The notes under the pieces: model-generated
Seen by the model: the letters and a program-made list of their open reading frames with translations, nothing else
Database searches by the model: none
What the model was told of the DNA's origin: nothing
Shown: piece by piece, positions 8,101 to 39,780 of the stretch
How positions within the stretch are numbered: position 1 is the first letter of the stretch
Layout: every line of letters begins with the position of its first letter
Translations under genes and position numbers: made by a program
DNA from: Hydrolagus affinis
Lineage: Eukaryota
Length of the DNA stretch: 64,000 nucleotides
Reading direction: 5' to 3'
Assembly (NCBI GenBank): GCA_012026655.1
Contig: JAAILG010000381.1
Location: 1 to 64,000 of the forward strand

Positions 8101-10787
8101 GAATTCCATAAATTCACTACCCTCTGAGTGAAGAAATGTTTCCTCAACTCTGTTCTAAAAGGCTGACCCTTCATTTTAAGACTGTGACCCCTGGTTATAG
8201 ATTCTCCTACCAGGGGAAACAGTCCCTCACTATCTACTTTATCCAGCCCTTTAAGAATCTTATCTGTTTCAATAAGATCTCCACTAATTCTTCTGTACTC
8301 TAGAGAATACAGCCCTAGTTTATTCAACCAATTCTCATAGGTCAGTCCCCTCATCCCAGAAACTAACCTAGTGAATCTACGACATGTCACTCTAGCAACA
8401 AGAAATCTGGTGCAGTTTTAGAGACGAAACTTCATAGGCAGGTACAGGGAAGCCTCAAATTGAGAAGATTCCTTGCTACAAATTAAGAAGGAAGGAGACT
8501 GCACTTGAATAGTGTGTGTATGGAAAAAACTAACTTGCATTTTTATTGTGACATGACATTTGAAAAATGTCAAAGCGCTTCACAATAATTCTTGAGTGCA
8601 AAACAGCTTATTCCCAAAGTTAGGCAAACTAAGGAGCACAGTGTTGAATTATGTAAGGCTTGGTTTGAATTATTCGGAGAGCTGACTTACCCTGCTGAAA
8701 GCTTTGATAGTTGATACGTTGCTTGAGTTCGCACCATTTTAATATGTAGTCTGTTCTGTTGCTGTCGTAGATTCGCTTCCATCCCCTATTCTCACAGAAG
8801 TTGCTTATTCTATATTCAAAAGAGATAACACAATGTTTCAAAGGTATAACCACCAGACAGACCAGAAGAGAAGATCCTAAAGGAGGATGGAGTCATGTCA
8901 ATGGAGATGGGCAGACAGGTGGCAAATGCAATTCAGGGCACAAAAATACACTTTAGGAGGAAGAACAAAAAAAGCAAATACACCCTAAATGGTAATATTC
9001 TTACTAGAGTGAAGCAGCAAATACCTTGGACTTTCACTCGACTTAGACTGTAAAACAAGCCAATTGAATGGTAGGTTTTACATCCGGGGGCATTGAATAC
9101 AAAAGTAAGGAGTTAATGAATGACGTCAATTATCAAACTGTATGAAATCTGAGGTTTTTCATGACATTATGAAATGCAGTAAATTTCAGTGCTAAATCCA
9201 ATTAAGGCCATTAAATCAATGCAGGCTATTCGAGCTACGTTAATAAAATTCACTGTGAAGCTACTTTATACATACAAGTCGGCCCCATTTGCACCTCCAA
9301 TGTAGAAGAAAGGTCCTGTGCCTCTGTAGTCATATCTCTTGGCTTTGTTGTTTTTGGAATCTCCGGACTGATCTGTTTAAACATTTAAGATTACTGGATT
9401 ATTTAGTAGTCTGTTGCATTATGAAGATATTTTAAATTAGCACCTGTGATTCGCTTTTCTCAATCGAGCAAGTTTTTTGGGGGGGTGGTCAGTAACTTGT
9501 CTATCACCTGCGGAAACATACCACCGTTGGTTAAGACTATCCAAACCAAACTGAGAATTCCATGCATCCCACCTACATATGAAAATTCCAGAGATAGCTA
9601 TTGGAATGGAATGCTCACTCTCTCCCTGGAGGGTTGAGTAAGGTATCATTCATCAGCTACGACTAGTCCAGATGTCTGTTTTGATGAGACCAAATTGGAA
9701 CTTCTTAAAAAAAATATTCACTGCCTCTGTCCATGTATCAGAGAACTCCAACACGCAAGATCTCGACTCCAAAGGAGCGTGATGAGTAAACGGGACCATA
9801 GCTCGAGGAGAGGACCAACTCAGGCACAACCTACCATAGAAACATTCTGTATCGTTCCATTTTGTGGCAACTAGTTTGGTCGCCTTGTTTAACAGCAAAT
9901 ATAACGCAGCATTGCCAAGTGGCAGGCTGTCACTGAGTGAAAGGGGTTTCTTTGTTACTTTTTTTTGAAGGGTGCTCCATTCCCAGTATTCCATTCACTC
10001 AAGCCCCCTCCAGTCCTGCTCCTGAGCCAGGGGGCTTCCTGGGAACAGGGTAGCTAACCCTTGATTTTCCCTGGAACTGTGCGGAGATTTCTGGCCTCAA
10101 AAACTGCAAGAAAGCTAAGCCTTGGAGCTCAATGGTGCAGCCGATCAAACCAGTGTTATTTTGAGGCGCTATGTAGATCAGACAAAGGTATATTTGGACT
10201 TAAATCCTGGACCGCACTTCAAAAATACATTCTTGTGCGCAATTCGAATTTCAATCGTTTCAGGAGATTGCAAACTGATTGTGGAGAGCATCCAAAATTA
10301 TTCCCCTTCAACTCAGCTCAACGATTATCCAAACACACACAAACAATCTTTCAGCACGTTGCTAGGAAATTGTACACAACACAACTGAGCTTTACATCAA
10401 ACAAATTTCCAGTGTTTTCAACATAAATGGGTCCTATTTCATTCTTATTAATTTTGTGCTATTGAAATTGACGACAATTACAGTGAGTGCATGTCTTTAG
10501 ATTGCGTGTTTATTGTCTGCATCGCTGATTGAAGGAAGCAAAGGCGCTTTGTTGAAATTACAACCGCAAATGAAGCTTAAACAATCATTAGAGTGAAATA
10601 CAAGAGCGAATCTCTTCCCATGGTAGTGTAGAGACTTTTGGTAGATCATTTGGCTGACGCTTCACACAGGGAGAGGTCTGTGACATTCCCTACATTCTAA
10701 CAGAAAGGACGCAGAGCAGGTAACAGCTTACAAAACTGCCTGGAGCCACTGGCGAGGAATGAAAGTCATAGCCTTACCAGCTTCCAT
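2147..10787 (-). CDS. ttll10: Tubulin polyglycylase TTLL10 paralog A (multi-exon, 3'-incomplete; last exons expected left of the window)
   Basis: GT-AG exons with consistent phases: 9276-9372 (DQSG..GTGPFFYIGGANGADL), 8691-8809 (ISNFCENRGWKRIYD..ILKWCE), 7748-7868 (KQMLNHIPNNKLLTTKAGL), 6271-6356 (DDFYPETYRMD), 5272-5443 (QIWICKP..GRGIFL..VVQR), 4535-4706 (YIHNPLLLDGRKFDVR..HLTNQ), 3095-3235 (YIQKKNP..WSMERLN), 2147-2263 (GFFDLLGCDFMIDQNFK). These are TTLL ATP-grasp motifs, and the GPFFYIGG/KWCE segments are TTLL10-like. The first exon 10778-10787 (ATG GAA GCT G|GTAAGG) is tentative; see findings for an alternative 5' end. Confidence 0.92.
3284..3466. other. Assembly gap (183 N)
   Basis: Run of n within a TTLL10-A intron. 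Confidence 1.
4107..4497 (+). mobile_element. tRNA-derived SINE, full length, with internal (CA)n/(CACGCA)n microsatellite
   Basis: Head ctgtagctcagtggttagagcactcgcc (pol III A box) followed by a B-box-like segment, shared family body and (TAT)n tail. Confidence 0.85.
7905..8390 (-). mobile_element. CR1-type LINE 3' fragment
   Basis: ORF 8061-8390 encodes a CR1 ORF2 C-terminus (YSLEYRRISGDLIE..TRGHSLK..FFTQRVVNLWNSLP); (TTCTTATG)n tail at ~7905-7930. Related 3' fragments at ~2520-2770 (+), ~38430-38690 (-), ~41715-41925 (+). Confidence 0.85.
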
Positions 10788-11079
10788 GCGGAATGAAAAA
10801 GGAGAAAGTATATAATCTTTAACATGTGCGCAGAATGATTTTACCGGAGTTACTTTTACACTCCGGTGGCTATTACTGCCTTAGATGGCGGAGGCTGCTG
10901 ATTGGAATAGACGAGAACAATGAGCGAAGAAGCAAACATTCCATGCTTAAAACCAGTATCGGCCACTTCTTTGTGTTTCATTTCCACAGACTCCACCTTT
11001 TCATTGGGAAAAAGTCAAGCTGGGAGTGGCATGCGTGTGTAGGTAGCTAGCAGAAGAAAACTTTCCCTCTTATAATAAG

Positions 11080-11408
11080 AATAATCCTTGCATTTGATAT
11101 TGCGCTTTTCACATCTTATCGACGTCTCAAAGCGCTTCACAGAATATACTGTAAAGTGAATTGACTGTATATTTGTGGGCGAATCGCGGCAGCCAATTGT
11201 GCACAGCAGCGTCCCACAAACAGTCGTGGATTACATGACCAATTTTTTTATTATTGTGGTTCTTTTGGACGGATTATTATTAGGCGTGTGGAGTAAGGAA
11301 ACTAAACAAGGTTTCGCCCTGACCTGCCTGGATTCAAACACAGATCTCCCCAGCTTGGTCTCCCCAGCTTCCAAGACAAGTGCTCTAACCACTAAGCCAC
11401 AGGAGCTC
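11080..11408 (-). mobile_element. tRNA-derived SINE (same family)
   Basis: aataatccttgcatttgatat..gctctaaccactaagccacaggagctc. Confidence 0.85.
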
Positions 11409-11424
11409 TTTATTTCCTAGTGAC

Positions 11425-11787
11425 CTGCTAACTCCTTATGAACCTGTCCGTTCCCTCCGCTTCCCCCACCGTACTCCTGGCCTGACCCACCATCAGCCAT
11501 GGGGCCTTCTGCCTCTCTTCCCCCATCCTTTGGAATTCCATCCCACAGTTCCTTTATCTCGTTCCTTCCCTTTCCTCTTTCACACATCGCAATACCCTCC
11601 TCTTCGGCCATGCCTACGGCCACCCTGTTACCCTTATCCTCCCTACCCTTCATCCCTCCTGATCCCGATTCCCTGCTCGAGTCCAAATCCCTGACTGTCC
11701 AGCGCCTTGGGATGTCTTCCCGATCCGAAAGACGCATTGTGAAGGTCGCTTGTTGCTTGTCGTCTGTGATCTTCATTGAATGGATCA
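11425..11787 (-). CDS. Candidate symmetric (phase 1-1) G/E/R/D-rich exon upstream of TTLL10-A
   Basis: 363-nt open segment inside ORF 11417-11821 (VIHSMKITDDKQQ..GQVHKELA) after a T-rich tract and AAG acceptor, ending at GCAG|GTCACT. Its phase fits the exon starting at 9372. Both splice sites are weak. Confidence 0.35.
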
Positions 11788-12766: not shown

Positions 12767-13634
12767 TTAATAACATCAACAAGAAGTCTCGGGCGGAGTA
12801 TAAACGCAGCCGCACAGACTAGTTGGGCTGAACGGTCTATTTCTATCCAGCTGTATCTATGAAAAGGGCAACGAAAAAGCTTCGCTAACAAACCACGAAG
12901 GAAGAACTGTATATTGTACAGCTTCAAATTGGTGGATCGTTCAAGGGTATAACACATTCTCGGATTCATTTTGAACCACGGCTTTCATTCTGCTTCTGAT
13001 GGAGATGCGAAGCAAACATCCATCATCTAGCTCTCTGTCTGTGCCTGGTTTATCTTGACCTGTTCTCGCCCTCTGGTGAAATGAATGGGTCCGTGCGACT
13101 GCAACATAAAAAGCTAACTAACAGTCATTAAAATAGGTCCTGGCACTTATGTGTGTACGTAGAAGAGATCTATTGTGTCCTATTGATAAGGAATAGAATT
13201 TCATCAGTGTCCCTGAGACTTATCTGAAATTCGGCGGGTCGAGCACTGAGCTGAAAACTGTGCAGGTTCAGATTCATGGAGGATTGTCCTCACTGAAGGA
13301 CACACGCGTATTGGTGATGTGCCACACTCAGTGTTTTGAGTTAAAAACCCCACCGAGATTTAAATCGAACACACACCTGTGTACTTGCTGGAGAGTATAT
13401 CCGGGAGTGTGGGTACACTGCGTAGGAATGCTTTTCTGAATTCATTTATATTGGAAAAATAACATGTATCACCCTCCGAAGCCATATCATGTTTAGTCTG
13501 TAGCTGACATTATGCTATGATGCAAGTGGTGATCGCTGTCACAAAGACTTGGTATTTAAAGGGGTGTCATCAGACATTTTTTAAACATCAGTAATAATAT
13601 CCCACGCCTCACACTACAACAATAATAATATTAT

Positions 13635-13946: not shown

Positions 13947-14159
13947 CAATGCCTGAATTTTCGCCCATTTCCACAAATGTTAATGTTTCAAGTTAAAACT
14001 CCAAATCCCATGTGGCAGTAGAATATGACATTGTTGGTCTGCGAAAGTCCATGGTACCTCAGGTATACGATTGTCTCCTCGTGACTGCTTCAGGAACATC
14101 CCATGCCTCAAAACACCCCATTAAATATCTTTCTATAATCTTTGCTCAAAATAGCCACG

Positions 14160-14761: not shown

Positions 14762-15080
14762 TGGGGGCGTGGGGGGGGGGGGGGCGTGGGGGCAAACTTC
14801 CGGGTGGGTGAGAAATGAAGGTGAAGTTACACAACTGGTTCTTTCCAACGAGTTGTACAATGACATGAGGAGGAGTGCCCAGGCTGGTTTGCAGTTGTGC
14901 TCACTCCTTTGTTGGATAATCTCAGTGACATAAAGCGGTTGCTATGAGGATATACCGCAGAGGGACCCAGATTCCGCATACTGTATTACCTGCCAAATAG
15001 GGTACGGCCAAACACATGACCCACACAAACAGAACAAGTGGGTGATAACCCCTTCACTGCCAAACTCTTGACTTCACAGA
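14762..15080 (+). promoter_or_regulatory. Inverted copy of the 41.3-41.5 kb element, 5' of TTLL10-B, preceded by GC boxes
   Basis: 14794-15018 is the reverse complement of 41303-41527 with ~4 mismatches. Two GGGGCGTGG boxes at 14762-14792, ACTTCCGG at 14796-14803, GTTGCTATG at 14938-14946. Confidence 0.6.
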
Positions 15081-20509: not shown

Positions 20510-23500
20510 ATGGCTTCAGACGACGATGGTTATTTTTCCAATATAAACGAGTTCCAAAACAATTTCCTATGCAGTATTTCACCAATCCCGGCAGTTTCCT
20601 CTCACAGGTTCTCAGGTGAGTGATTCGACTCAGTTCCAAGGGTTGGAATCCTTTTGGCAGGACCCCACGTGTTTAGAGAAACACACGTGTCTCTCTCTCT
20701 CTCTCTCTCTCTCAGTGAGAGAGAACAATAAAGTGAATCTGAAACTGTAAGAAGTTCAGTCATTTGGCAGAAGATATCAGAGATTCATCCATTCTGATCA
20801 AACAGGCCTTATACTGTACTAAGATAATATTAATCTTTGCATTTGATAGAGCGCTTTTTCATGTCTTCAAGACGTCTCAAAGCCCTTCACGGAATACACT
20901 GTAAAGTGAATTGACTGTATATATTTGTGGGCGAAATGCGGCAGCCAATCGTGCCCAGCGGCGTCCCCCACAAACAGTCGTGGATTGAGGTGACCATAAA
21001 GTGTGTTTTTTTGGGTTAAAAAGTGTCCTTTTAACAAAAGACTGTTCAATCTTCTGTTTAAAAGTGAGCCCAATGTGACAGATATCTTCTCATGTTATAA
21101 AATGTGGGATAATGTTGATAACGCAAATAACTTCCGACTTAAAAACAGATCGAACAGGGAACAATGTCAAACTAAAGGATTCCAGGCGAAAGAGAACGGA
21201 TGATCGGCGAGACAAGGGGCTTTTTTTCTACGTTGAAAGCTCAAACGAGGCTGACTTGTACGTACAAACGTAAAGCTTTCTGTGGTAATAAGTTGCTAAA
21301 ATGTTGCTCGTGACGTCCTTCAATAAAAGATGGTTTGAGACATTCGAAAATGTACCATGAGCAAATCAGAAGTTATTGTGTCATTTCAGGTTTGTATCTG
21401 AGATTCACGACGAAACTTTTAAACGTCGCACGTTACGACTCTTGCGTGCCACGTTCTGCCCACAAAGTACACTTTAATATCCACGTTATATTAATATTAA
21501 TCCTTGCATCTGACAAGCGCTTTTCACGTCTCCCAGATGTCTCAAACCGCTTTACAGAACATACTGTGTATATGTGGGCGAAACACGGCAACCGTTTGTG
21601 CAATTGTGGATTGAAATGACTAAAAAAAAATTGGGGGATTATTATTAGGCGTGTGGAGTAAGGAAAATTGCCCAAGGTGTCGCACCTGACCTGGAATTGA
21701 ATTTAGGTCTCTCGCTTGTAACGCAAGTGCTCTAACCACTGAGCTACTGGACTCCACAAATTGCAAAACGCTTCAAACAATTCAACCATTCACACCAAAA
21801 CTTCATTCCATCGGCCACAACACAAGATCTTATACTTTACAATATATTCTGTCATTTGAGATGTCTTAAGCGAAGCAATAAGGTGCTATATCAAATTAAA
21901 GGTTTAATATTCTTCTTATTATTATCATCATCATTTTGGAAGCCTACCAAATATTGTCACAAACCAACAGACTTATTGTCTCTCTGTTTGAGCTCGTTTA
22001 GGGCAACAAAAAGGATTGAAAGCAGAACTCTGATCACCTGCGGGACTTCCATGTGATATTACGTGAACTCTATGTAACATTATATGAACTGTATTCACTC
22101 AATAGATTTATTGTTCTCGCGTCAAAATATTAAATAACGATGTAAGAAGACAAGTTGCACACAGTAGGGATGGAGCTTCAATTTTTATAATCTGGTTGAT
22201 ACGCATTATTATATATGGAGCTTAAAAGCCCTTATCAGTTAAAGTAACATGTTGAAATATCACATTATTTCTTTTTTTGAATACAGAATTTACAACTACT
22301 GTGTGAACAGGGAATGGAAGCGAATCATAGACAATATCAGACTGAACTACATATTAAAAGGTAAAACAGAAATAACTCCATTCCGCACTGTTAATGTGTT
22401 TCTGCACTACATTGGATTCAACACTTACCTCTTTGACTGCACCCACTCCCTAACCTCTCCAGCTGCTAACTAGCCCCCACCCTGGCTCGGGCATCCACTC
22501 TGAGACAAAGCTCTCTGAGATACCCTCCTGACGCCCAAGATATTATATAAATGTAAATTAAATAATATAAATGTAAAGATATATAAATGTCAATTGTAAA
22601 GCAATGTGGATATTGCTGCCTTGATGTTTGTGACTTTCTTAAATCCAATTTGTTGATCTTTTTGATGGAAGCTATCAAACTAGCAGAGTGAGGATGAAAG
22701 ACTTTCTGCACTTTATTTCTCTGGCTTCTGTCTTTGAACAGGTAAGCAGACTTTATACCATATTCCTAACAACAGGTTCCTGACCACCAAAGTTGGCCTC
22801 TGCACTTCGCTCAAGGATCAAGAGCGGAGAAGCAACAGATACATAAAGTTCAGATGTTCCACGTAAGGACACTTGTACAGTATTATGTTTAGACTGTGAT
22901 ATAGACTATATGCCACTACCCTTAATTGACATACCAGCCATTGGTTACACCTGAACTAAGCAGTTGCCAAATGTGCTGCTACAGTTACCAAATGTGCTGT
23001 GACTTCCAAACGGGAAGGGAATCAATCTTCTTATTCGCGGAAACCAAACAGATCGAGGAGAAATAACAGTTCGAGAAGAGATGAGAGACCCCAAAATTTT
23101 CTCATGGTCTCTTAATGACTCAATGTTGAAGATGACGTGAATTTTTAGAAGCAAAAGAAAACATTTCTGCTTCTCTCCACCAGGCTGCTGAAACTGGATG
23201 AATTCTATCCTGAGACGTACCGCATGGATGTGGCGAAAGAGCGGTTAACTTTCTTTGAGGTCTTCAAAGGTATTTATTCTCTTCCTTTTGTCTGTCATCA
23301 AAGGCCAGTTTGTGGTATGATTGAAATCTAGACTTGTTAGTGTCAATCCGGGTGTTGTTAGACGCAAAGTAACGGATTGTTAACAACCGTGTAGGATGCG
23401 TGGTTGATGATATCTTTATGAAACAATGGGGGCGAAAGTGTTGATAAGCAACGCTCTTGTTAACAGCTCCACCATCTAAACTGTATTTCATTATCATAAA

Positions 23501-26500
23501 TCATAACCCTTACCTTTGAGAACATCCTGTGAATCGCTTTGAGGCGTCTCAAGATGTTGTAGTTATTGTCTTAACCCGATAAGGCGCTATATCAAACGCA
23601 AGGATTGTTCTAATTAGTATTATTATAAACACCGATGAGAGTATTACCTCATCGCCCATTCCTGACTGTGGCTCCCTGTGCTTGTCTCTAACGTAGACGG
23701 ACAGATTTGGATTTGCAAACCCGCCGAATCGAGCTTGGGCCGAGGGATCTTTCTTCTGCGGAATCGCAATGATGTCGCCGCCTTCCGCAGTAAACTGGAG
23801 AGCGTGGAAAAAATTCCTCAACACAGACTGTGCTTCTACAATGCGCCCATTCACAGAATAGTACAGAGGTACGTGGAAAGAACCGAAACAGAAATTAAAT
23901 TGCTGATTATGTACAGCAACAGGACTGGAGGGATACCAGGGAAGGACTGACGCGTCGTGAGTCAAAGCTCTGGCAACATGTCGCAGCTGGACATAATATC
24001 AAGATGATCATCCTTGTATCATTTGACACAGAGCCTTATCACGTTGTTGAGACGTCTCAAAGCACTTTACAGAATACACTGTAAAGTGAATTGCCTGAGT
24101 GTTTTCTTGGCGAAACAGGCAGAAAATTAGAAACGTATGGTCTGTCCAGCGCCACGGACAGATCCAGAGGAGTAAAAAATGTCCCTGACTGTGTCTCCCA
24201 ATGTACACTTGCAGTTTTATTAAAATGTCCTTTTTCCTCAAAAAGGTACATTCACAACCCTCTGCTACTGGATGGTAGAAAGTTTGACGTCCGCTCCTAC
24301 TTCCTGATTGCCTGCACCTCACCCCATGTGACCTTCTTTCACCACGGTTATGTCAAGGTGACGTGTAACCAATATCACCCAAATTCGGATGATCTGACAG
24401 GCCACTTAACCAACCAGGTAGGCTGAATATTAAACCATCGGTCACTCGCTTCAAGGCTATATTAAAATCCCGCGAAGCGCTTTGAGACATCCCAATGACA
24501 CTGTAAAATGCAAGGATTACAGTATTATTATAATACTAATAATCCTTGCATTTGATATAGAGCTTTTCACGTCTTCTAGACGTCCCAAAGCGTTTCACAG
24601 AAAACACTGTAAAGTGAATTGACTGCACGTTTGTGGGCGAAACGCGGCAGCCAATTGCGCACAGCAGTGTCCCACAAACAGTCGTGGAATGAAAGGACCA
24701 TTTTATTATTTTTTTTGTTGGAGGGATTATTATTAGGCGCACGTGTGGAGTAAGGAAACTTGCCCAAGGTTTCGCCCTGACCTGCCTGGATTCGAACACA
24801 GGTCTCACGCTTGTAAGAGCTCCACAACAACTCCCAAACCAAATGAGTCATTCAATCCATAGCTTATAATTGGTAACAAGTAAAAGTGTAAAGTTGAGGG
24901 TTTGGACCACATCAAGGCCATCTATAAAGGAAGGAATGGATGATAACGAGGTCAGGGAGATAGATGTGCGCCTGTGTTGGCCAGTGTGTAAATCCAGCTG
25001 GTGTACTGGTGTGGGCAGGTGCTCATTAGCTGTGTAACCTGCGTGAGGGGATAAAAATACGCAGCTCAGCAGATGTTGCCGATGTTTTTCTCAATCCCAT
25101 GTGTTTCATCCATCTCTGGTGTGTATAAGCCAAATCTACCTGCATTTTAACCCCTTCGCAGCACAGAAGTCTTGTTTTTCCATCGTCATTCCCCGAACGT
25201 ACGGCCGAAAGAACAAACTTATTTTCACAGCACCTTTATTGTGCTAAATTGGATCCCAAGCGGTCTTCTACGGGTGAATGTCACTGTCGAGCGTAGTGAC
25301 TGCTTTGTAAGGAAACAAAGCAGCCGTTTGCAGCAACAAGCAACAACAAACTTACACTGATAGAGTGAGCGCCTTTCACGTCGGGAGGACGTCCCAAGGC
25401 GCTGAATTTTGCAGATTTTTTTGGCCAAGATATATAGAGAAAAACTCCCTTTCAACAAGTGTCTGCAGCATCATCTTATCAAATGCCTTTTGAAAATACA
25501 TATTCACAAGACGACGGCGTTTGGTTTCCAACAATAAACCAAATGCATATGATGTAATGCCTTTATATTACAAAAACATCTAAAAGCACTTCACAGCTAA
25601 TTGCTAAATACTCCTCCTTCTGACTCACAAAGCTTCTGACTAGCTTTTAAATGTTCAATTTTTCACAGATGTCTGCAATGTCTAAAATATACCACCTGCT
25701 GCCCCCTTCCCTCTCTCTTTTCCTGGGAAGCATATTTTTAATCCACTAATTGCAGCCTTGTGTCTTTTCTCCCTCAGTTCGTGCAGAAAAAGAACCCAAA
25801 TTACAATGAGGTGATGGAGGAAACAATCTGGTCCATGGAGCGGTTAAATAACTACATTAATGACAGGTTTAGGATAGCAAAGGCTCTCCCGAAGGACTGG
25901 GTCTTCACTATGTTTGAGGTAAGGGAGTGATCCTGCTTTTCACACTGGCTCCAATTGACACAAGGGTCTTCTCAGGGCTTTTACTAAAGTAATCCTTGCA
26001 TTTGATCTAGCGCTTTTCACATCTTCTAGATGTCTCAAAGCGCTTCACGGCATATACTGTAAAGTGAATTGACTGTATATTTGTGGGCGAAACGCGGCAG
26101 CCAATTGCGCACAGCAGCGTCCCCACAAACAGTTGTGGATTGAAACGGCCAATTTTTTTGGGAGGGATTATTATTGGGTGTGAGGAGTAAGGAAACTTGC
26201 CCAAGGTTTTGTCTTGCCGTGAATTGAACCCAGGTCTCTCTCGCTTGCGAGGTGAGTGCTCTAACCACTGATTTACAGGACTCCAGGAATCATACTACCA
26301 GTGGAGCTCCTGTGGCTCAGTGGTTAGAACACTTGTCTTGCAAGCTGGGGAGACCAAGCTGGGGAGACCTGTGTTCGAATCCAGGCAGGTCAGGGCGAAA
26401 CCTTGGGCAAGTTTCCTTACTCCACACGCCTAATAATAATCCCTACAAAAAAACCACAATAATAAAATTGGTCATTTCAATCCACGACTGTGTGTGGGAC

Positions 26501-29500
26501 ACTGCTGTGTGCAATTGGCTGCCGCGATTCACCCACAAATATATACAGTCTATTCACTTTACAGTATATTCTGTGAAGCGCTTTGGGACATTGATAAGAT
26601 GTGGAAAGCGCTATATCAAATGCAAGGATTATTATTATTATTATTTTAGATGATTCGGGCACACCCTAGCTAGTGACGGCACAGAGTTGTAGTGTTTATC
26701 ATGATGACATTTTTGATCACCTGGAACGTTAGATAACTTAGTTGAGTATCTAATAACCAGGCGTTTTTCAGGAGGTTGTTTAAGAAAATAATTTTAAAAA
26801 CGACTTCAAAGACTGGACATTCTAAATTACCCCCACAATGGAGTCAGTCAGGGCAAACTATCTCCCCATTCTTGTCAAATGCTTTACTCAGTATCTTGTC
26901 AGCTCCTTAAACAGCCAGCTCATGACCAAGTACATGAGGCTGCTTAACAAATACCAATGAAAAAGAGATGCTTCAAGGTTTTAATTCAAGGAGGGATATG
27001 TGAATGAACAGCCATCTAATAAGGGTGCAAGCATCTCAAAAGGTTTCTGATTATTAATAAATCCAAGACATCTTTTTTATTATGTTAATTTAAAAACACA
27101 TTTTTGTTCCGTATAACTCTTAGTTTAAGTCCCCACCTGGAATATATCATCATCTTGGATTCCAGATAAACCCTTGTGAAATTTAAAGTTTGGGGAAAGA
27201 CCTGGGGAATGGACGAGAGAAAACTCCAGTGGGAGGGTTGGCAAAGAGCAGAAACAATTGTCTGAATGGTCTCCTTCTCCACTACATATTCTATAATTCG
27301 ATGCCCATTTTAAACACATCATTTAAAGCTTTATCAATTTTCTTGCAGAGGAGGATGCAACAGATCATGAGGCAATGCTTCATCTCTGCTAAGAGCAGAC
27401 TGGAATGTAAACTGGGCTACTTTGATCTTCTGGGCTGTGACTTTATAGTTGATCAAAATTTCAAGGTGATGTGCAGTTATTTGTATTCTTTTTATTTCCT
27501 GTGTTTGTGTTAAGTCAGAGATGACAATTCCATTGACTTGTTGCGATCACTAATCTTGCTGCTGCCAACGGCATGGACTGGCCACCAGCAAAAGTCCAAA
27601 CGTAAAATGAACTCCACCAAAAAAAGTGATTGACATACATGAAGGAACAATTCCCCAGTCCATTTAAACACAACACAGGCAGCAGATGTAACACAGCACT
27701 AGTTCAGCCATGATTGATTTGGATGGCATTAATGCATGCAAAACACTACACAGGCCCAGACAATGCACACTCTTGTCGTATCGTTGAATGGGGGGGAGAG
27801 AGAGAGTGGTAATGAATTGGAAACGAAACCCTCTCGTGTTTCAGTAAATGGCCGCTCGCTGTATCAGTGTCTACCTCGCACAGTGACTAATCCCACAGTA
27901 CAATGAGCCATCTGATCGCCTCTCATTCAAACATCCTTTATGATTAATTAAAGGACTTTGTTGCCCAGTTTGTTTTCTGACAAGAGAGGTTTTTTTTTAC
28001 ATAAAGGGTTGAAATTGTTCAAATATTTGATTTACAATGTGCCTTCATAGACATAATCAATATGTGAGAGAAAACACAACTTGGTTCCAATTTTAATAAG
28101 CTTACAATAATAATCCTTGCATTTGATGTCATGACGACCAACCCTCTCAAAGCATTTTCGCTGCAGAGTATGACTGTGTATTTGTAGGCAAGCGCGATTA
28201 CCAATAATCTGAATACAGCAAAGACCTACAAACAAGGAAGTAAATGACAAATTTTGTCCGGGGGATAGTTGGCTAGGACACCGGGAGAATGACTGGCCTT
28301 TTCGCAGTGGTTACCACATTCGCTATTTGCAAACCCTTTCGACAATCTTTGCAATGAGATGTCAGAGCATGGGTTGGTCTGAATCGCTTTGCAGAATATT
28401 GAAGTGCATCAGTAATCTTCTAATGTCCACAGCTAACGGATAACTTTGTGTAATTCCCATTTGTGAGCCACTGTTTGTGCGGGTTAGCTGCATGTTTTGT
28501 AGGCGAAGAAAGAGGTTCGTGTCTCTCAGTTACTGGTCACGGGGAGAGGAGGTGACTGTTGAGATCGCTGTGGAAGATTGCCTTTACTCAATAAAATTAG
28601 GGTCTCCATGACCTTGCAGCGAAGATCCTGGCAGGTGGATCCTAAACTGGGATTTATTTACAGCCTAATTTACTATCGCATCAGTCGGGAGATCAGCCAG
28701 AATTTGTGCTTTCACTGCTGGAAAAGTGAGGCGGGTGGAGAAAATTTAGAAAGTTGATAGGATTTGTCTGCAGTGATCACCAAATTAAAAAAAGGATGAG
28801 ATATCCAGTAGATTTATTGGTGGGAATGTTTTACCTGTTGTCATGGTGGCTAAGGCCAAACAGAACTGGTTAGAATGATTTGCTTAATGTCAACATGCGA
28901 TTGTATGTGTAATGTTTGGATTAATAAATCTGCAATCTGAGAAAAGCCAGTAGACTTATTGGCTATATCGACTTAAATCGTCAGAATCATCCTGGCAATG
29001 ATATTGCAGTTTAATAACAACAACTTGCATTTATATAGCGCCTTCCACGCTGGGCGGCGTCTCAGAGCCCTTTGCAATGGCGGAGCCTGAGGCCGGGCCA
29101 GGGGGAGGGGGGAAAGTGACCGTAAGCGTGGTCGGTCGAAGAGAAAGGTCTTCAGGTGTGACCTGGAGATGGGGAAAGAGGAGCGAGGTGAGGGGGTTGA
29201 GGGAAGGAGTTCTAAAGGTTGTGGAGCGGAGGATGCGGGGTGACAAGGAGGAGGTCAGACCCAGTAGAGGCAGAAGGTTCTGCTGTGAAGAGAGAGGAGG
29301 TTAGAGAGGTCAGGGGGGATGCAGAGGAGTGGAGGGATTTGAACACAAGAGTGAAGATCCTGAAGTTGATCCACTCTGTGACAAGAAGCCAGTCATGTTT
29401 GGTTAATACCTAACCAACCATTCAGCCACTGAACAGTACTGCACAGGAGTCAATACAAATAATTAGTTTGTTGTTGTCCTTTCACTTATATAAATCATCC

Positions 29501-32218
29501 AATGGTTATTTAATTTATCACACTCACAAAGTGGAGTCCTGTAGCTCAGTGGTTAGAGTACTCGCCTTCCTTACAAGTGAGAGGCCTGGGTTTGATTCCA
29601 GGCAGATCAGGGTGAAACCTTGGCCAATTTCCTTACTCCATAGGCCTGATAATAATAATCCCTCAAAAAATGAACAATAATAGATTGATCATTTCAATCC
29701 TCGACTGTTTGTGGGGACGCTGCTGTGTGCAAACGTTGCCACCTTTCGTCCACATATATACAGTCAATTCATTTTACAGTATATTCTGTGAGATGTCTAG
29801 AAGATGTGAAAAGCGCTATATCAAACGCAAGGATTATTATTATTAAATTGTTTTTTTTTGTTCTTAGCTTAGAAAGTTTGAGATGCATTGGCCTAAAGCC
29901 ACTGTCTGTTTTTAGCACTAAGCTACAAAGAGCTGAAGGTTACAGAATCCAGGTGTGATGAGGTAGGTGTTGTGGTGCTATAATTGGCATCAGTCCACCT
30001 GGGTGAGGAAGGGAAAAATCTGGTAGAATCATTTGTTGTGATCCCTCCTGTTCAGTGACCTAAGGGCATACATGTGGGACATTGGATGTAAGGGCATGTG
30101 ACCTGGCTCTGTGTTGACGCTGGCATCGCAGGTGAAGCATTAAAACACTCCAAATTGTTGCAAGTCTGAAATTGCTATCGCACTCGCTTCAAAATAAAAC
30201 TTTTAGAAAATCATGAAGAGGGTCACCATCCGAAAGGTCGGTAGAATTCTTTCTGACCCTTGAGACGGCTTCCCGGCTGCCATATCTATTTGCCAAATCT
30301 CCTCACATTAAGGACCTGGATTAAGCAGCTGGAGGTGAATACGGCTGGTACGTGACATTGGGCTTGCTACTCAAGAACATTCAAGGTAGCTGGCACGTCA
30401 CAAGCTGTCCTGCAGAGGTCCTCCTCATGTGCTGAAAGCAGCTAAAATGAAAGTGAGTGCGATGAAAGAGGGGGATTTTAGATGGGATTTAGTCAGAGGT
30501 GCAGAGGGAGGGAGCGAGGTTACGGACATAGCAGTAGAAAATGGAGCAGAGGAGTGGATGAACACACTGCAGGCTCCAGCAGAAGGAGTGAAGGAAGAGT
30601 TGAGGTCGGAAAAGAATCACTGAATAATGGAGGTTCCTGGGCAAGAAGGGATTTATAGGTGAGGATACAGATCTTGAAGTTGATCCTTAGGGAGACAGTG
30701 GATCTTAGTGGAGCTTAGCTTCAGGTGAGCTATTTCAGTCGCACAAAGTCATCGAGGCGAAGGGAGAGAATCCAACCCAAAGGCTTGAGGCATCATCCAG
30801 ACATGAGGGGTTATATAAATACAATTTGTTGTTGTTGTTAATCAGTAATCCGTTGCATTTAATATAGTGCTTTTCGCATCAGGTGGACATCTCAAAGCGC
30901 TTCACAGGATCTATTGTAAAATCACGTGATTTACTGTAAAGAAATAAAACGTGTATTTTGTAGGGAAATGCAGTGTGCTGTTCTTTAAGGTTCTGCACTG
31001 ACAACAACAACAACAAAATTACATTTGTAGAGCGCCTTTCACGCCGGGAGGACTTCCGTGGATAAGTTTGTGCAAAAGAAACTGGGAGAAACATTTGAAC
31101 TTTAAAAAACCCACCGTAAATATCATAGTAGTTCTGCACCATCTGGTGGACGTTTAAAGCATTGACGTGTGAAAAGGAGTGCTGAGTTTCCGTATCCAAG
31201 ATTATGCAAAATTGGATCACTCACATTCAGGGCTATTTGAGAGAAAATGTTGTGTACAAACTGGCTGCGCTGTGTTCACCAACAAATAACAGTCACCACA
31301 CTTTGCGGGAAATTCCTGTGGAGTGCTTTGAGATGTGTCGGTAAAATAAATGGCTATTTTTTTCTTTAGGATGGTAAAACCGTTTTTGCGCATCCATCCA
31401 AACCAAACGCGGCTTCACAGAGAACCACTTTAATACCATTTTATATCTTCTGTGGGTCCTAAACTGGGAATGAGGAAAAAATACACTGAAAAAGTGTTTG
31501 ACAGGAATGCAATTGATCTATTTCAGGTCTGGTTACTTGAGATGAACAGTAGCCCATCTCTGGAGAGACACTGCGAGGTTCTCAAAAATGTCATCCCCAG
31601 TTTGGTTACTGAAGCTCTCGGTAAGATAGCCCATTTTCACCCTCGAGTTATCACAAAAAGACATTCGTGGTAAGGGCGGGTTTTCAGACATACGAAATGA
31701 ACACCCTTCTGTCACTTGGCAATTCTGCTTGTTTTAACAGTGGCTCTATTTTATTATTAGATATAGTCATTGAGATATTCATCAAAAGCGGACAAGCGCT
31801 ACCCATCCTGCCACTTCAGTCACAAAAGAAGTTCATCCTGCTCTATCACACTTGCTTCCTGGATTTGAACCTCAAGTCGATCACAAAGTCGAGGGCGGAG
31901 AATCTCTTCTTGGAAAAGATACCACACATCAGCCATTCTGACTTTTCAGCGACGAATCCGAAGAGGCTGGAGCCGTCCGCAAGCTTTGCTCGCACCCTAA
32001 CCAAATTAGCTCAGAGATCGTTTCACTCGCAGCGGCAGCTGCCAGAGATTAAAGAGGGACGGAAGCGACACTCTGCCAAACCTAAATCTAGCCAGGATGT
32101 AGCAACCACTCAAGGTGCTTTGATTGAATGTAAACCCAGTACGGCATCGAAGGCTTCTAAAGCCCACTCAAAATTGACTCCAAGATCGCCTCGTAAATCA
32201 TCATCAGCTAAGGCTTAG
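20510..32218 (+). CDS. ttll10: Tubulin polyglycylase TTLL10 paralog B (11 coding exons, 549 aa, divergent)
   Basis: Exons 20510-20615 (tentative; GATATGG Kozak, MASDDDG.., AG|GTGAGT), 21149-21257, 22287-22360, 22742-22862, 23184-23269, 23697-23868, 24246-24417, 25778-25918, 27349-27465, 31527-31620 (VWLLEMNSSP), 31761-32218. They total 1650 nt in one open frame. Six internal exons have the same lengths as copy A (121, 86, 172, 172, 141, 117 nt). Confidence 0.92.
21497..21757 (-). mobile_element. tRNA-derived SINE (internally deleted)
   Basis: Family tail and head both present. Confidence 0.8.
24535..24823 (-). mobile_element. tRNA-derived SINE
   Basis: Family sequence with the head partly deleted. 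Confidence 0.8.
25989..26285 (-). mobile_element. tRNA-derived SINE (left member of a head-to-head pair)
   Basis: Family sequence ending ..tttacaggactcca. Confidence 0.85.
26302..26645 (+). mobile_element. tRNA-derived SINE (right member of a head-to-head pair)
   Basis: tggagctcctgtggctcagtggttaga..gcaaggattattattattatt. Confidence 0.85.
27684..27951 (+). other. Conserved intronic block in TTLL10-B (paralog of 436-712)
   Basis: Contains long identical runs with the reverse complement of 436-712, e.g. cctcgcacagtgactaatcccacagtacaatgagccatctgatcgcctctcattcaaaca. Confidence 0.85.
29531..29845 (+). mobile_element. tRNA-derived SINE
   Basis: gtggagtcctgtagctcagtggttagag..aaggattattattatt. Confidence 0.85.
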
Positions 32219-33281: not shown

Positions 33282-34034
33282 CCTGCTGACAATAACAGTT
33301 TATTTTGGTCTGCCGAATGTCTGACACATGCGAAGCCCAGCACCATGCTTAAGGTCTAAACCATCATTGCCAAACTAGGCTAGGAGATGCACATGCGTAT
33401 GCTACCAACGCATGAAAATGTTCCTATATCTGGAATAGGATTGGCATTCTCTCACACATGATGGCCAAATTGCCTTCTGTGCTGTAAATTTCGAAATATA
33501 GTACTTCAATACTTCGGGAGAAGTATTTCCAGAAACTTTGCAGGTGCACAAGGCTTGGTGGACCCTAGAGTACGTGTTGCGAGTTTACTCACACGGCCTG
33601 CCGTTGAGAACACGGTCTGGCAAGCTTCCTGATTCTTGTTCAGGTGAGACCACTCCATCCATTTGGCCTTTGGTTTGGTGGAATACAGGAGCCACGAGGT
33701 AAGAATCCCAGTTTAAAAAAATAAAGAATTAAGCAAATCACAGAAAGAATTAAACATAAGAGAAAATCTCTTTCCCCAGAAAGTGGTTTTGTTGAGGAAT
33801 TATGCGCCACAAATCATTGTTGGAAGTAATATAGAGGTACCTGTTCTGGCTGTAAACCCTGAAAACAAATGGTGAATGTATGTTGAAACTGAAGAACATT
33901 TGCAACAGAAATTATGAATGAATGAAAGAAGTATACAAGTGAACTGGGGTGGATTGTATTTGAAATATTGTCAATACAAACAAACTAAATTATGAACTGG
34001 TCCAGTTACACCCAAACTGTGTATTGCTATTTGC

Positions 34035-37000
34035 TTACAGCACAAACAGATAAACTGCCAGAAGCTCCAGGGCAAAGGCTAGGAACAATGGGCAAAAAAT
34101 ATAGAGCAATTCATGTTGCAGAAATCTGACCGCAAACACATTTGAATTGCTTGCACCCATGGTTGAAGAGCTTTCTAGCTGACAGGTTTGTGAAGCCTGG
34201 TTCTGTCCTACATTCTCATCCCCTTTTTCCAATTCTCTTACCTCTGACCTGGTAAGGTTTGCCTCATTGTTTGCTCTTAATTTACATTTCATACATTGGG
34301 TTGATTCCTCAGTGTCGACTTTTGAATAAATGACACGTATGACTGCTTTACCTGGGCTACCTGCACCATCATTATCTTTCATTGAGACAATATCAGAGAC
34401 AGAGTTCAATGTTTTCTCTGACTCCTCAATTCCAGTCCCCTTCACTTCCTTCTCTGTCTGTTTGGGGGTTTGGGGACTCACTTTTGTGGGATTATTCTGA
34501 GCAAGCACAGTACTGTCTAATGATTCTTCATTAGAAGAATGAAGTGTGGCACTCTGCAGTGTGTCTTCCATTGAGTCTGAGGTTGGTTGGGAAGTAGAGT
34601 CAGTTGTTTGGAATGTCTCTGTACTTTCCTGAACATTAATCAATATCTGTTTGGGAATCATGGATTTCGGTGCATGTGTGGAAGTTGGTTTGTCGTGGTC
34701 GGGTGACTCCGCTTCGGTGCCTTTCAATGTTACATCTGCTTCTTTATCCTCAGTGTCATCCTCCAAGGCGAAGATCGACCATTTGCTGGGAATGTACTTT
34801 AGCAAAGAATCCCACTTATGCTCTCCGCAGTGGCTGCCAAGCCAAAAAAAAAGACACTGACAAAAGATACAGCAACAGAACCAAAATCAACGCACTGGTA
34901 TCCATTTCATTTTACAACCCGCAGTTAATTCACAGATGATCTAGCGATGAACCAGGTTCTGAGTTTGCTTTCTCAATCCCTGGGGGAGGGGGGGTGGGGG
35001 GGCAACTCATCTGTCCCAGGGGATTTCAGCCTTTTGAGCCCAACCAGAAATAAATAGGACTTTGCCAAACAGTCAGAAGGAACGGGGATGGGGGATGAGT
35101 GTGGCTGCAGAAGGAACATGTTTGACCTGCTTCTTATATTATAATCTACAAGTGAGCAAATATTTTGGAAAAACCTTTATAAATCTTGCAGGTGGTTTGT
35201 GCACCCACCTGTTTTACAAATGACAAGGATTGGTCATTTTATTTTGTCCCATTTCCCCCTCCCTCCCTCCCTCCTCACACACACACAATGCAAACAACTG
35301 CTATTATCTGGCAACAGCTGTGACCTAGACAAAGGTAATTATACATTCCTACACCAGTCACCTGCTGTGAAGAAGATTAAAGAGATCTCAAAAATGTACA
35401 ATTTGAACAGTAAAGGATCAACTTAGTCGACTCACGGCCTAACAAAGGATCACTTCTATTAATAAATATGTAACTCAAAAGCTGTAACTTTTGGCTGCAT
35501 TGCAAATTCTCTCTCTTCTGGTCACAGAAATGAAGAGCAATTGTACTTGAATCCTGTGTAAGCACGATTACTACCGTTACAAGGTAATCAGGGAGCAAAG
35601 CAAACTGTGATACAGGGGAACTGAACAGACTGTGGAAGAGAAAACAAAATGCATGACCACCATGTAAATGTGAGGAAAAGCACCTGTGAGAGACACTCCT
35701 TTGTGAGATGGGAATCCCTGTACCTCAAACTGACCTGTGACACTGGCCCTGAACCAAGATCTCCTGAAGCTGAAGTCTTACTCATCACTCTTTCCTGAAA
35801 GGGTCAAACACTTACTTTCAGAGAAGAAAGCGGTGGTGGTGAGGGGCAGGGGGAGGGTGGTGGAGAGGGCAGGGAGTGCTAACCAAATCCATGGTAACAA
35901 CACAATTTGCTTTCTTTTTGATTCAATATCCGTGTCTATGAAACACGTCATCCGGTGAAGGCAAAAAAAGTAAAAGTTAGTCGATGGGGATGACAAAATA
36001 TAAGCCATCGTTTGAATGACAAAGTTATATTTAAAAATCCCCCACTGGTGCAAATTTGCTTCACAATCATTTAAGGAAATTTCTGTTTCCTGGCACCGGA
36101 ACTGATGAACGCACGTGAAATAGTACGGATGGTGGGTGGGGACGCAGAGGAATATGGAAAACTACAATACATGCAAATTTGCCGGTGGATGTATTCAATG
36201 CTCCGTACCTATAATTTACTACTTGCGTAGATCGGACGGTCAGTCTCCCTCGTGTCTCAGTTGGTAACACCACTGGCTACGTATGGAGAGACTAGAGAAT
36301 CCCAGCAATGTAGTTGACCTCAGCAGTAGGTGGATATAACACAACCATCAACATTGTACTAATGATCTTTTCGTTAGGTGACAATACTAAGGTTTAGGGG
36401 TGCTAAGATGATAAGGGATTTCAAATTTAATTTACCTATTAAAAAAAAGTTTGGTCGCCTTAGCAATTTGCACAAGATAAATCTGAATGAATCCAACCAG
36501 AGACTGTTTGAGAGAAAATGGAGGCTGAACACACAAAACAAAATCTCAATGCAGCAATAATAGCTGGGCGATTGAGCAATTGTCTGAGCAACCGGTTGTT
36601 CAAAGCTTCGGAAAGATTAGGAAGACATCTGGCAACCACCCTGAAGTTGACCAGTTAGAACACGTGTACGCCATTGTTTTATACATACTCAGTAAAACAA
36701 GAAAGTTAAACCATTGCACTTACCTCATACAGTTTCCTTGCAGCCATGTGTCAATCGATTTGAAGTGAAATTCCATATTCTCATAAAGCGGGGAGACAAA
36801 CTTATAGGAATCAAAAATCTGCACCTTGCCATTCCTCGGCCGAGCACCGAGCGTCTTCTCTCCATCTCCAAACCAGATCTCAACGTGCACAATGTTGTGG
36901 AGCTGCAATTTGGCTGTCAACAATCGAGAAAAGCTTGGGTTTGACAAAAATTACAAAGTGTGAATAGGCCAGACATTGGACATTCAATGGCATAACTGGC

Positions 37001-39780
37001 TGAAACAAACACACTGCCAAAAACGGGCAGTTTGACCCGACTAGTTAAATAATAATCTGTGTTATAATCCTTCACATCTTATCAACGTCTCAAAGCGCTT
37101 CACACAGCGCTTTGAGACGTTGATAAGATGTAAAGTGAATTGACTGTAGATTTGTGGGCGAAACACTGCAGCCAATCGCGCACAGCTGCGTCCCCACAAA
37201 CAGTCGTGGATTGAAATGACCAATTTTATTATTGTGGGTTTTTTGGGGAGATGGATTATTATTAGGCGTGTTTGTGAAGTAAGGAAATTTGCCTAAGGTT
37301 TCGTCCTCACCTGCCTGCATTAGAAACACAGGTCTCATGCTTGTAAGGCAAGTGCTCTAACCACTGAGCTACAGTAGCTCCACATACTTATTGGGCAAAA
37401 GCAGCAACTGTCTGATATGTACTTCAAGTCTGCAATTATGTAGTTGATTTGTAATTAAGGAGAGCTTGTCTTTGTGACTGTCTCATTCTCTATTAGATGA
37501 CTACTTCTAAGATTTTTCTAACCCAGGTAGAATATTTAAAACAACTAGTTCAACATCCCAATGTTGGGGATTGAACCCCCAAACATTCTGTTTCAGATGC
37601 AAGAGTTCTACCAACTGAACTGGGCTGAATGAATGACCAAAACATGAATGACCAAGCCAAAATGTATGCTTAAATAAGTATTCATCATAGCACTAGTCGT
37701 ACCTTTGGGGTTCAACTTTTTGCCTGAGACAAAGACAAGGTCCCCTGGCTCCATAGTCTCCTGTGTCCTTATGTTCGGGAGTGTGTCATACATGTAACTC
37801 TTGTTCCCATGAATAATAAATCCAAAGTCATCCCTCAGGTCTCGTACAACTCTCCTCACCAGCCCACCGCCATCCCGAAACAAAGGTGTTTTGTCTTCCG
37901 GAGCTAGGAAATAGTTAGTAGGAAAATGGCAATGTCACACTAAATCAGATCATATTATTGCAAAGCAACCTTAATTCACTTTGCGTCAGAGTGATTTCTG
38001 GCACTGGTAGAACAATGTTGATAATGATGAATCCCAATATGAAAAAGATCACACTGTGTACGGTCCAGAACAATCTGCGGTTCAATCCCTGATCAGTGTT
38101 GAGTTTGCTGATCTGAGTTAAGAACATTGAGTATGTGTGTTAATGTTACGTGATGACAGGATTGGATGTGATCATGCTTCAGACAGGCAAGAGTCTTGGT
38201 GAAACTCACTGTCTAACCTGACAAATGAGAACAGATACTTGACTGAGATATAGATTTGCTACTGCTCTCGGAATCATAGGTAGCGTGTGAGTCTAAGAAA
38301 TCCATTGACAAACACCCCGATTATTAAATTCCGCAAGCCATACTGATAGTGATCAAACAGGCGAATTGAATGATATAAAAGTATGACATACTGTATATGC
38401 TGGATTTGTACAGTCATTCTGAATTAAGCATAGAAACATAGGAACAGGAGTAGGCCATTCAGCCCTTCGAGCCTGTTCCGCCATTTAATTAGATTATGAC
38501 TGATCTGTATCTCTACTAATCCTTTTAATTCCAATTTCCCGCTTTCTCCACGTATCCCTTAACACCCTGACCTACCAAAAATTTATCAAGCTGACTCTTG
38601 AAGGTGTGGATGGATCTAGAATCGGGAGAGAAACTTCCAGATTTCTACCAACCCTTTGAGTAAAAAAAAATGCTTCCTGATTTCTATGTCCCCTTGCTTT
38701 GCATTCCACCACCAAAAAAAGTAGCTTTTCTGATAAGCAATTCTATCCGAGTGACGTCAAGCACACAATGAAGTCTGGCCATTTTTGCTTACTCACTTCC
38801 TGGTTGGTAGGACTTCTGTGCATATGGCACACCGATGTAATTCTTTGCTTGTTCGATGAATTTTCGCCGCAGTTCCCATTGCTGAACTGTGTTTGTCACC
38901 TGGTGGGGCTTTGTACTTATCACTGAAGCATCGTGCAGTTCCTCCTGCAGTGGGCACAAGGTCGAGAGAATTACTTTAACAGGTTCAATAAATCCACTAT
39001 TTTATTAGTTGACGTTTTATATAACGTTCATCGAACATTCATTATTCTCTTGCCCTTAAGCTTCTGAATCTGGTTTTCTTGCGAGCTATGACTTATTCCA
39101 CCTCATTGTTGAGATGGTTGAGATTGCAGTCACTAAACTCCCTTCCAAAATATCTTTGCCTTATTTCTTCTCTACCTGCCTACAAAACCCTTTTAATTAC
39201 CTTCCACCGACTGATAGAAATCTGGAAAACTATGCTTTGAGACGCAGCTCTACATGTTCCAGAACACTAGAACCTCCCATTTCTTTTAGACGAGGGCATG
39301 GGTTGTTTAAAATGACAATTTGCACTTATAATGGCTCACTTTATGTGGGACTTTGGTTTTAATGTTTCATCCAAGGGTATGGCACCTCCTTCAATAGAGA
39401 ACTCCCCCAGTACTGCACTAGATTGGTAACCTGGACTGGGGCTCAACTCCCAGTTTGGCCTTGAGGCAAGAGCGCTGTTAACTGAGTAAAGCTGACACTT
39501 GACGTAGTTTCTTGGAGTAACCCAAAATAAATGAGGAAACCACAGGGTGGAAAACGCAACACGTGAAACTGATGGCTGAATGCTGTGTGCTGGAAATTGT
39601 GCAATTTCACTACTACAATTTGCTGGCACCATCTCAGAGATCAGCCCATGTTCTCGGAAGACACGCATTACAAGCAGCGATAACAAAGATGGTGACGTGA
39701 GGAGGCAGGTTCGCATTTTTCACTGAAGTGACATAATCACCTCATGTGCTGCTTCCTCCATCAGAATCATAGTTTTACGG
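34035..39780 (-). CDS. Uncharacterised NlpC/P60 (papain-like) domain protein, catalytic Cys position replaced by Gly; acidic linker; possible hydrophobic C-terminal tail (455 aa as modelled)
   Basis: Phase-consistent GT-AG exons: 39751-39780 (MILMEEAAHE, tentative start), 38797-38944 (..LRRKFIEQAKNYIGVPYAQK), 37703-37903 (PLFRDGGGLVRRV..MEPGDLVFVSG), 36724-36913 (HNIVHVEIWFGDGEKTLGAR..KSIDTWLQGNCM), 34035-34833 (SHCGEHKW.. acidic S/T/E-rich ..LLYIFCPLFLAFALELLAVYLFVL*). Total 1368 nt, open. The motif order GxPY / D-C-x-G / GDLVF / HV-x-I matches NlpC/P60. Confidence 0.82.
37064..37382 (-). mobile_element. tRNA-derived SINE with internal inverted duplication
   Basis: Family sequence; palindrome at 37074-37131. 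Confidence 0.8.

Follow-up and report, generated by a model that had tools for sequence, protein, structure and literature searches.

The stretch of DNA considered here, positions 1 to 64,000 of contig JAAILG010000381.1 of the chimaera-like fish Hydrolagus affinis (64,000 nucleotides (nt); hereafter the window), carries a gene with an NlpC/P60 peptidase domain and two genes for TTLL10. The most probable reading, in our view, is that an ancestral fusion of the two proteins has come apart here: one part is now a stand-alone NlpC gene, with a product predicted to be anchored in the membrane and to have no catalytic activity, and the other exists as two intact TTLL10 genes (TTLL10-A and TTLL10-B), which stand head to head and have first exons of their own. 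A sequence-only reading of the window had proposed one NlpC/P60-TTLL10 gene with the second TTLL10 nested antisense in its intron, or alternatively a fission in progress. The window itself shows neither a fused nor a nested gene, and it is the fission that the evidence favours: the NlpC gene has its own tail, Callorhinchus has a separate NlpC gene, and the ancestral splice donor is mutated. What is new here is likely this fission of an ancient, little-noticed peptidase-ligase fusion, which left a tailed remnant without the motif cysteine and two copies of TTLL10.

The NlpC domain and its fusion to TTLL10

Five minus-strand exons of the NlpC gene (Table 1) join in frame with GT-AG ends to give an open frame of 455 codons, and they lie 5' of TTLL10-A on a common strand, where the sequence-only reading had placed them. 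The segment TLQEAF..KKRQ, which follows the first coding exon in sharks and Callorhinchus, was not found in the window.

Searched as a query, exon 37701-37904 led to two Heterodontus RefSeq isoform clusters with NlpC domain, linker and TTL domain in one chain. When the Heterodontus domain was then compared with proteins of 551-1754 amino acids (aa), a length limit that favours fusions, NlpC was followed by TTL in 112 of the 120 matches listed of 121 (query included). The named matches are from sharks (the Heterodontus and Heptranchias models among them), coelacanth, crocodile, turtles, lizards, snakes, caecilians, axolotl, sturgeons, gar, bichir, tarpon, lampreys, echinoderms, molluscs, cnidarians, a sponge and stramenopiles; no mammal, bird or frog is named among the 120. 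Some fused homologs lie on contigs of about 3-4 kb, hardly longer than their coding length. Among the best 150 of 702 representatives of any length, TTL is present in 41 and missing from 109, mostly short or partial, and TTL was the only recurring partner of the domain in the longer or shark matches scanned (20/44). The reverse search with a TTL exon gave 79 of 85 proteins without the NlpC domain, from primates, a rodent, frogs, most teleosts, skates, tunicates and both Callorhinchus copies; the domain was whole in five and partial in one. UniRef labels some members of the family 'NlpC/P60 domain-containing'. These comparisons support NlpC/P60-linker-TTLL10 in one chain as the ancestral unit, as had been supposed, and the objection that TTLL10 of outgroups might lack the domain clearly fails.

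Records outside the window include Albula, where TTLL10 and the NlpC domain carry neighbouring locus tags (P0154, P0224), and tortoise and gecko, with the NlpC domain alone (P0225, P0229, P0230); these may be further fissions or split annotation.

The assignment of the domain rests on structure as well. The AlphaFold model of the Heterodontus domain (pLDDT 89), to which the window domain is 66% identical, has only NlpC/P60 structures as its top Foldseek and VIA matches (Foldseek E to 6e-5; VIA Z 13.1, root-mean-square deviation 2.3-3.3 A over 112-127 residues), and Atlas agrees on the fold (score 0.96). Against PF00877 of Pfam a single window exon scores 14.9 bits and Heterodontus 17.3 (cut-off 23), while several homologs exceed the cut-off. 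Sequence searches of the PDB found no solved structure of this TTLL10-associated family.

NlpC/P60 enzymes have the consensus D-C-S-G, the Cys being the nucleophile. In the 254 homologous rows of the eukaryotic family the motif is D-C-C-G/A, with the first Cys in 237/237 rows that have a letter and the second in 235/237 of the other rows; the Gln of N-Q (245/245), the His (248/248), the Glu (248/249) and an Arg (248/248) accompany it. The first Cys is taken as the nucleophile on account of this conservation and the general motif. The window reads D-G-G-G where its homologs have D-C-C-G, with the Gln changed to Lys and the His at the catalytic position retained, and Callorhinchus reads D-S-C-G. 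Since the predicted nucleophile is replaced in both, the two holocephalan proteins are likely to be catalytically inactive. The fused Heterodontus domain (P0002) has Cys and Asp in place of two near-invariant Tyr, hinting at a relaxation of selection in sharks.

Probable separation of the NlpC gene from TTLL10-A

The donor CAG/GTAAAG at 34352/34351 (34346..34354, minus strand), earlier put forward as the link to TTLL10-A, is indeed a phase-1 site, with 1051 coding nt before it, and can be joined in frame to the acceptor at 9372, directly or through 11787-11425. Its score of 7.8, from a matrix trained on 23 donors of the window, falls among those of true donors (4.0-12.5); in the intervening DNA, chance would supply about 0.17 phase-1 donors of this strength for every 800 nt. 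The Callorhinchus residue aligned there is Asp, where G/GT would require Gly, and 34352 is plausibly a cryptic donor not conserved in Callorhinchus.

The NlpC frame reads through this donor to its own stop at 34035. The last 35 residues are 32/35 identical to Callorhinchus and 22/35 to Scyliorhinus (GCB63700.1), as against only 32/70 and 15/62 for the linker just before them, and the DNA of this tail is single-copy. In all three species the most hydrophobic 19-mer (Kyte-Doolittle mean 2.4) falls within the last 25 residues, and the tail is predicted to form a C-terminal membrane anchor of the tail-anchored type. In Callorhinchus the NlpC gene is annotated separately, as LOC103187438, and shares a scaffold with the two TTLL10 genes; its records, XP_007905130.1 (503 aa), V9KTN9 and A0A4W3J5F9 (both 348 aa), all end in the tail. 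V9KTN9, which we take to be mRNA-derived, disagrees with the genome-based model in a single residue.

It might be asked whether this is a decaying pseudogene rather than a gene for a working non-catalytic protein. The window domain has 4 changes at 38 near-invariant columns, and at least four occur in only 2 of 154 complete homologs; one N-terminal segment was not found, and the domain is 82% identical to that of Callorhinchus milii, whereas the two TTLL10 proteins are 91-96% identical to the TTLL10 records of that species. Decay is nevertheless unlikely in view of a 455-codon frame that stays open over five exons with canonical splice sites and of the tail, nearly the same in the two chimaeras.

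How the tail came to end the protein is suggested by sharks. Heterodontus isoforms X1 and X2 are set apart by a single residue, the bracketed one in NPSNS[A]G, which points to tandem acceptors and hence to an exon junction at that place, and there Scyliorhinus continues with S-G-V into the tail. The corresponding codons of the window, located by an ungapped count back from the stop, are TCA AAT GTG (34145-34137; donor score -0.9), and Callorhinchus has S-N-A. In sharks about 23 residues separate this junction from the GPFFY exon; no counterpart of them was found in the window. At this junction, we infer, sharks have the choice of splicing or reading through, and the loss of the donor in holocephalans left these with the tailed form.

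TTLL10-A is complete (618 aa; 91% to Callorhinchus XP_007905134.1 over the core). It had been credited with a 10-nt first exon as its only candidate. This exon gains support from the start of Callorhinchus isoform X3, but it is not alone: there is also the 109-nt ATG exon at 13377-13485, whose homologs are the first exon of TTLL10-B and the N-terminal part of a TTLL10-like protein from a skate. The Callorhinchus A models open with two further short exons, whose counterparts are 10778-10787 and approximately 14010-14070. These models (606, 607 and 590 aa) start without NlpC, which is found in 0 of the 4 members of the A cluster. An independent start of TTLL10-A is thus indicated indirectly by exon 13377-13485, just as an end of the NlpC gene near 34.0 kb is indicated indirectly by its conserved tail and stop.

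The proposed symmetric linker exon at 11425-11787 proved to be an interspersed repeat (3167 candidates in the genome; other copies 72-80% identical, 40 scored), presumably LINE-like from its look; no linker homolog matches it, and Pfam finds nothing there.

A fused NlpC-TTLL10-A chain as the main product, with TTLL10-B nested antisense in its intron, would agree with fusion as the rule in outgroups, with the fused Heterodontus and Heptranchias models, and with the AESS loop that the proteins of these two sharks have in common with A and B. It is highly improbable, given the conserved tail before the stop, the separate Callorhinchus gene, the mutated donor of the shark type, A's own first exons and the repeat origin of 11425-11787, and the proposal of a fused transcript running through 34352 today finds no support, on the same grounds. 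A locus mostly split, in which a minor long isoform joins the NlpC exons to TTLL10-A through a new donor at 34352 and B is intronic, is also quite unlikely. The phase, score and open junction of that donor speak for it, as do the common strand, the ancestral order and weak poly(A) signals past 34035; against it stand the lack of the donor in Callorhinchus, the chance expectation given above, the absence of NlpC from the Callorhinchus A cluster, and the need for a 25-kb intron that would span an intact antisense gene and the first exons of A.

Certain points weigh against the split as we describe it. It is read from sequence and homology, and a fused isoform is possible, 34352 being in frame and within the range of true donors. 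The shark donor is deduced from protein isoforms rather than shark DNA; most of the records from Callorhinchus, Heterodontus and Scyliorhinus are models made by computation; and the first Cys is the predicted nucleophile by its conservation and by the D-C-S-G motif. No AATAAA occurs within 700 nt past the NlpC stop, the first being at 33304 (730 nt), and AATACA is found at 34025 and 33960. Origin of A and B from the fused or from the unfused shark paralog gives approximately unbiased (AU) test p values of 0.10-0.48 for all the alternatives tested; the first exon of A and B points to the unfused type and their AESS loop to the fused one. Four sequencing runs aligned to 22001-42000 gave no splice joints, the alignment being swamped by repeats. 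Run X1 looks like DNA of a close relative, with depth in all 30 bins; run X3, from another organism, was not used (depth 2.4 and 1.5 over 34007-35340, too coarse around 34352).

The two TTLL10 genes and the proposed course of the split

The TTL domain PF03133 is found in TTLL10-A and in TTLL10-B. The latter is likewise complete, its 11 exons coding for 549 aa, and matches Callorhinchus XP_007905165.1 at 96% over the core. Both genes are open, each has its Callorhinchus ortholog (tree support 100), and both belong to the cartilaginous-fish TTLL10 clade (support 100, in a tree without the TTLL3/8 outgroup). Over the core, A and B differ by dS 0.71 and dN 0.18, and they group together at 83/95. 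B, an old inverted paralog, lies between A and the NlpC gene, with its 5' end towards the former and its 3' end towards the latter. Only through the long isoform, whose existence is unlikely, would B be nested in an intron, and the homology evidence against a spanning transcript also tells against the earlier picture of an inverted duplicate within an intron of about 25 kb. Nor need B have lost NlpC exons, as had been thought, since it retained the first exon common to A and skate. The genome search found no third TTLL10 copy.

Several smaller features of the pair may be recorded. Exon 22287-22360 (plus strand) of B uses an earlier donor than A, which removes 15 residues without shifting the frame, the conserved Trp of L-K-W among them; an identical gap is seen in the Callorhinchus B model. 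In both first exons a further ATG, out of frame, is retained 5 nt ahead of the start codon (13485-13492, minus; 20503-20510, plus). Elsewhere, elasmobranch TTLL10 falls into fused and unfused clades, each across shark orders (P0002, P0012 vs. P0134, P0137, P0145, P0160), which would imply an old and apparently unremarked duplication; no species with both types was seen among the records.

An invariant Gln, at the position equivalent to TTLL6 Q180, marks TTLL10 as an elongase, according to a preprint (bioRxiv 10.1101/2020.06.07.139295). This position is Gln in 174 of 216 motif matches; it is Leu in A (exon 5272-5443, minus), in B (exon 23697-23868, plus) and in their Callorhinchus orthologs, and the elongase specificity of A and B may therefore have shifted. 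The same position is Glu in four unfused shark and skate proteins and Arg, the initiase residue, in 22 unnamed or protist-like fusions.

The element 1.5 kb upstream of the NlpC gene is indeed duplicated in front of TTLL10-B, as had been noticed, in an inverted copy (14794-15080) that is 93% identical; a search of the genome brought up no further copy. It contains ACTTCCGG and GTTGCTATG, which we take to be ETS-like and RFX half-site-like. The motif counts are only weakly above those of shuffles (5 and 12 of 100), and of three matches two are the duplicate itself. Another two-copy element, 422-712 and 27684-27966 (90% identical), occupies the equivalent intron of A and B and is far more alike than their silent sites, suggesting a conserved element or gene conversion; the 93% identity of the upstream duplicate, set beside the A/B silent sites, raises a like puzzle.

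The course of events that we propose would begin in early cartilaginous fishes, with a large linker exon that could either be spliced from its phase-1 donor to the TTL exons, giving the long fusion, or be read through to a stop 35 codons on, giving a short form that ends in a hydrophobic tail. A TTLL10 free of NlpC would have arisen through a new first exon inside the gene. In holocephalans a change of the donor from GT to AT would have left the tailed form alone; the NlpC active site would then have decayed (Cys to Ser in Callorhinchus; both Cys to Gly, and Gln to Lys, in the window) with the tail almost unchanged, and the NlpC-free TTLL10 would have come to exist in two copies, A and B, likely driven by the copy of the NlpC upstream element. 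The NlpC product of the window, if it acts at all, would be a non-catalytic, membrane-tethered binder, and A and B would be glycine ligases of tubulin or other proteins, with a possibly shifted elongase specificity.

Table 1. Positions of the features discussed (window coordinates)
Feature	Position	Strand	Basis or remark
NlpC gene, candidate first coding exon	39741..39770	-	in-frame model; loose likeness to Callorhinchus N-terminus
NlpC exon with N-terminal helix, GVPY	38797..38944	-	in-frame model, homolog comparison
NlpC exon with degenerate catalytic motif R-D-G-G-G (37863-37877) and Gln to Lys	37703..37903	-	alignment
NlpC exon retaining H-V-E and the invariant Arg	36724..36913	-	alignment
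NlpC terminal exon: domain end, acidic linker, hydrophobic tail, stop	34035..34833	-	in-frame model, homolog comparison
Conserved 35-residue C-terminal tail, predicted membrane anchor; first codon is the inferred ancestral fusion donor, here A/AT not G/GT	34038..34142	-	homolog comparison; single copy
TTLL10-A exons 9276-9372, 8691-8809, 7748-7868, 6271-6359, 5272-5443, 4535-4706, 3095-3235, 2147-2263	2147..9372	-	last two exons on G000:C7514
TTLL10-A, own ATG first coding exon, 109 nt, phase-1 donor	13377..13485	-	homology
TTLL10-A, alternative 10-nt first coding exon, M-E-A	10778..10787	-	matches Callorhinchus isoform X3 start M-E-T-D
Frameshifted counterpart of first exon of Callorhinchus TTLL10 isoforms X1/X2	14010..14070	-	homology; ends approximate
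Proposed symmetric exon, an interspersed repeat; weak donor score 4.4	11425..11787	-	genome search
TTLL10-B exons 20510-20615, 21149-21257, 22287-22360, 22742-22862, 23184-23269, 23697-23868, 24246-24417, 25778-25918, 27349-27465, 31527-31620, 31761-32218	20510..32218	+	11 exons
Two-copy element upstream of NlpC gene, with ACTTCCGG and GTTGCTATG; likely promoter	41236..41527	-	genome search
Inverted copy of that element between the divergent A and B starts; likely their promoter	14794..15080	+	genome search
mir-8/mir-141/mir-200 family precursor, first of three	58346..58413	-	Rfam RF00241, above gathering score
mir-200 family precursor	56288..56356	-	Rfam scan
mir-200 family precursor	51601..51669	-	Rfam scan

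The locus, related systems and possible function

Three miR-200 family hairpins lie upstream of the TTLL10 locus on the minus strand (Rfam), and contig C7514, with the last two TTLL10-A exons, continues downstream into an open reading frame with TNFR repeats. TTLL10 is found between the two, in what we take to be the human gene order, with TTLL10 between the miR-200 cluster and a TNFRSF gene. The window is an ordinary vertebrate miR-200/TTLL10 locus of a chimaera-like fish; the mouse Ttll10 is described as the host gene of the miR-200 cluster in PMC5356520. Elsewhere in the genome G000:C22096:6415-7380 holds a 686-codon frame without a break that matches the TTL domain at 32%, a further TTLL gene whose exon is very large or its only one. 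Repeats resembling tRNA-derived SINEs are plentiful in the window (e.g. 11072-11408, 26301-26645, 29531-29845), and four copies score as tRNA in Rfam.

TTLL10 of the window resembles that of other vertebrates in its TTL domain, its place in the TTLL10 tree and its miR-200 neighbourhood. It departs from the usual TTLL10 in its two head-to-head copies, its Leu for the invariant Gln and the NlpC/P60 gene upstream; the Xenopus and primate records scanned have no NlpC/P60 domain. The family is like the NlpC/P60 cysteine peptidases (SagA, YkfC, LytE, RipA/B, Trichomonas NlpC) in fold (Z up to 13.1), a D-C-x-G-like motif and the His, and differs from these peptidases at large as a eukaryotic family with D-C-C-G/A, N-Q, H-V-E, an invariant Arg and a TTL partner. 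In the window copy the motif is without Cys, and a hydrophobic tail has been added at the C-terminus. The NlpC/P60 group has a non-catalytic member in RipD.

The glutathionylspermidine and trypanothione synthetase/amidases, with two opposite activities in one chain, likewise place a papain-like amidase N-terminal to an ATP-grasp amide ligase. Their structures 2io7 and 2vpm came up in the fold search of the Heterodontus domain with Z of 5.7 and 5.2; these scores are weak and the substrates are small molecules, and the analogy is one of architecture, not of established functional homology. Amidase and ATP-grasp ligase in one chain is what the 112 of 120 listed homologs present, while in the window they are likely separate genes.

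NlpC/P60 enzymes cut gamma-glutamyl amides, and it is such a bond that starts a glycine branch. We would put forward, as a tentative idea more likely wrong than right, that the TTLL10-associated NlpC/P60 domain is the missing tubulin deglycylase, cutting the gamma-glutamyl-glycine branch or Gly-Gly, with the Arg holding the glycine carboxylate. The ancestral chain would then have been writer and eraser in one; cartilaginous fishes would have added a membrane-tethered, eraser-only isoform, which chimaeras fixed by loss of the donor and turned into a non-catalytic, membrane-anchored reader of glycylated proteins. Three papers (PMC12340829, PMC11244163, PMC13308552) know of no tubulin deglycylase. 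Giardia's 14-3-3 deglycylases (as cited in PMC3962474) are the only deglycylating enzymes found in the literature surveyed; they are unrelated metallocarboxypeptidases with 14-3-3 as substrate and no likeness to the cysteine-peptidase fold. TTLL10 itself is a polyglycylase, an elongating glycine ligase, according to the work on the Xenopus enzyme (PMC12340829). Against the deglycylase idea, the same paper has that enzyme restricting its own chain length, frog and mammal TTLL10 records lack the NlpC domain, and the model of a short-linker fusion shows two confident domains and a disordered linker (pLDDT 89.5, pTM 0.69), with no sign of a fixed arrangement. No paper pairing TTLL10 with NlpC/P60 was found, in a search made mostly without subscription journals.

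A cysteine-peptidase domain that is strictly conserved and joined to TTLL10 in animals and protists would make a testable candidate for a deglycylase. The window offers a natural dissection of it: the fission may be traced to one splice donor, the variant without the Cys could serve as control, and the short form with its tail is conserved.

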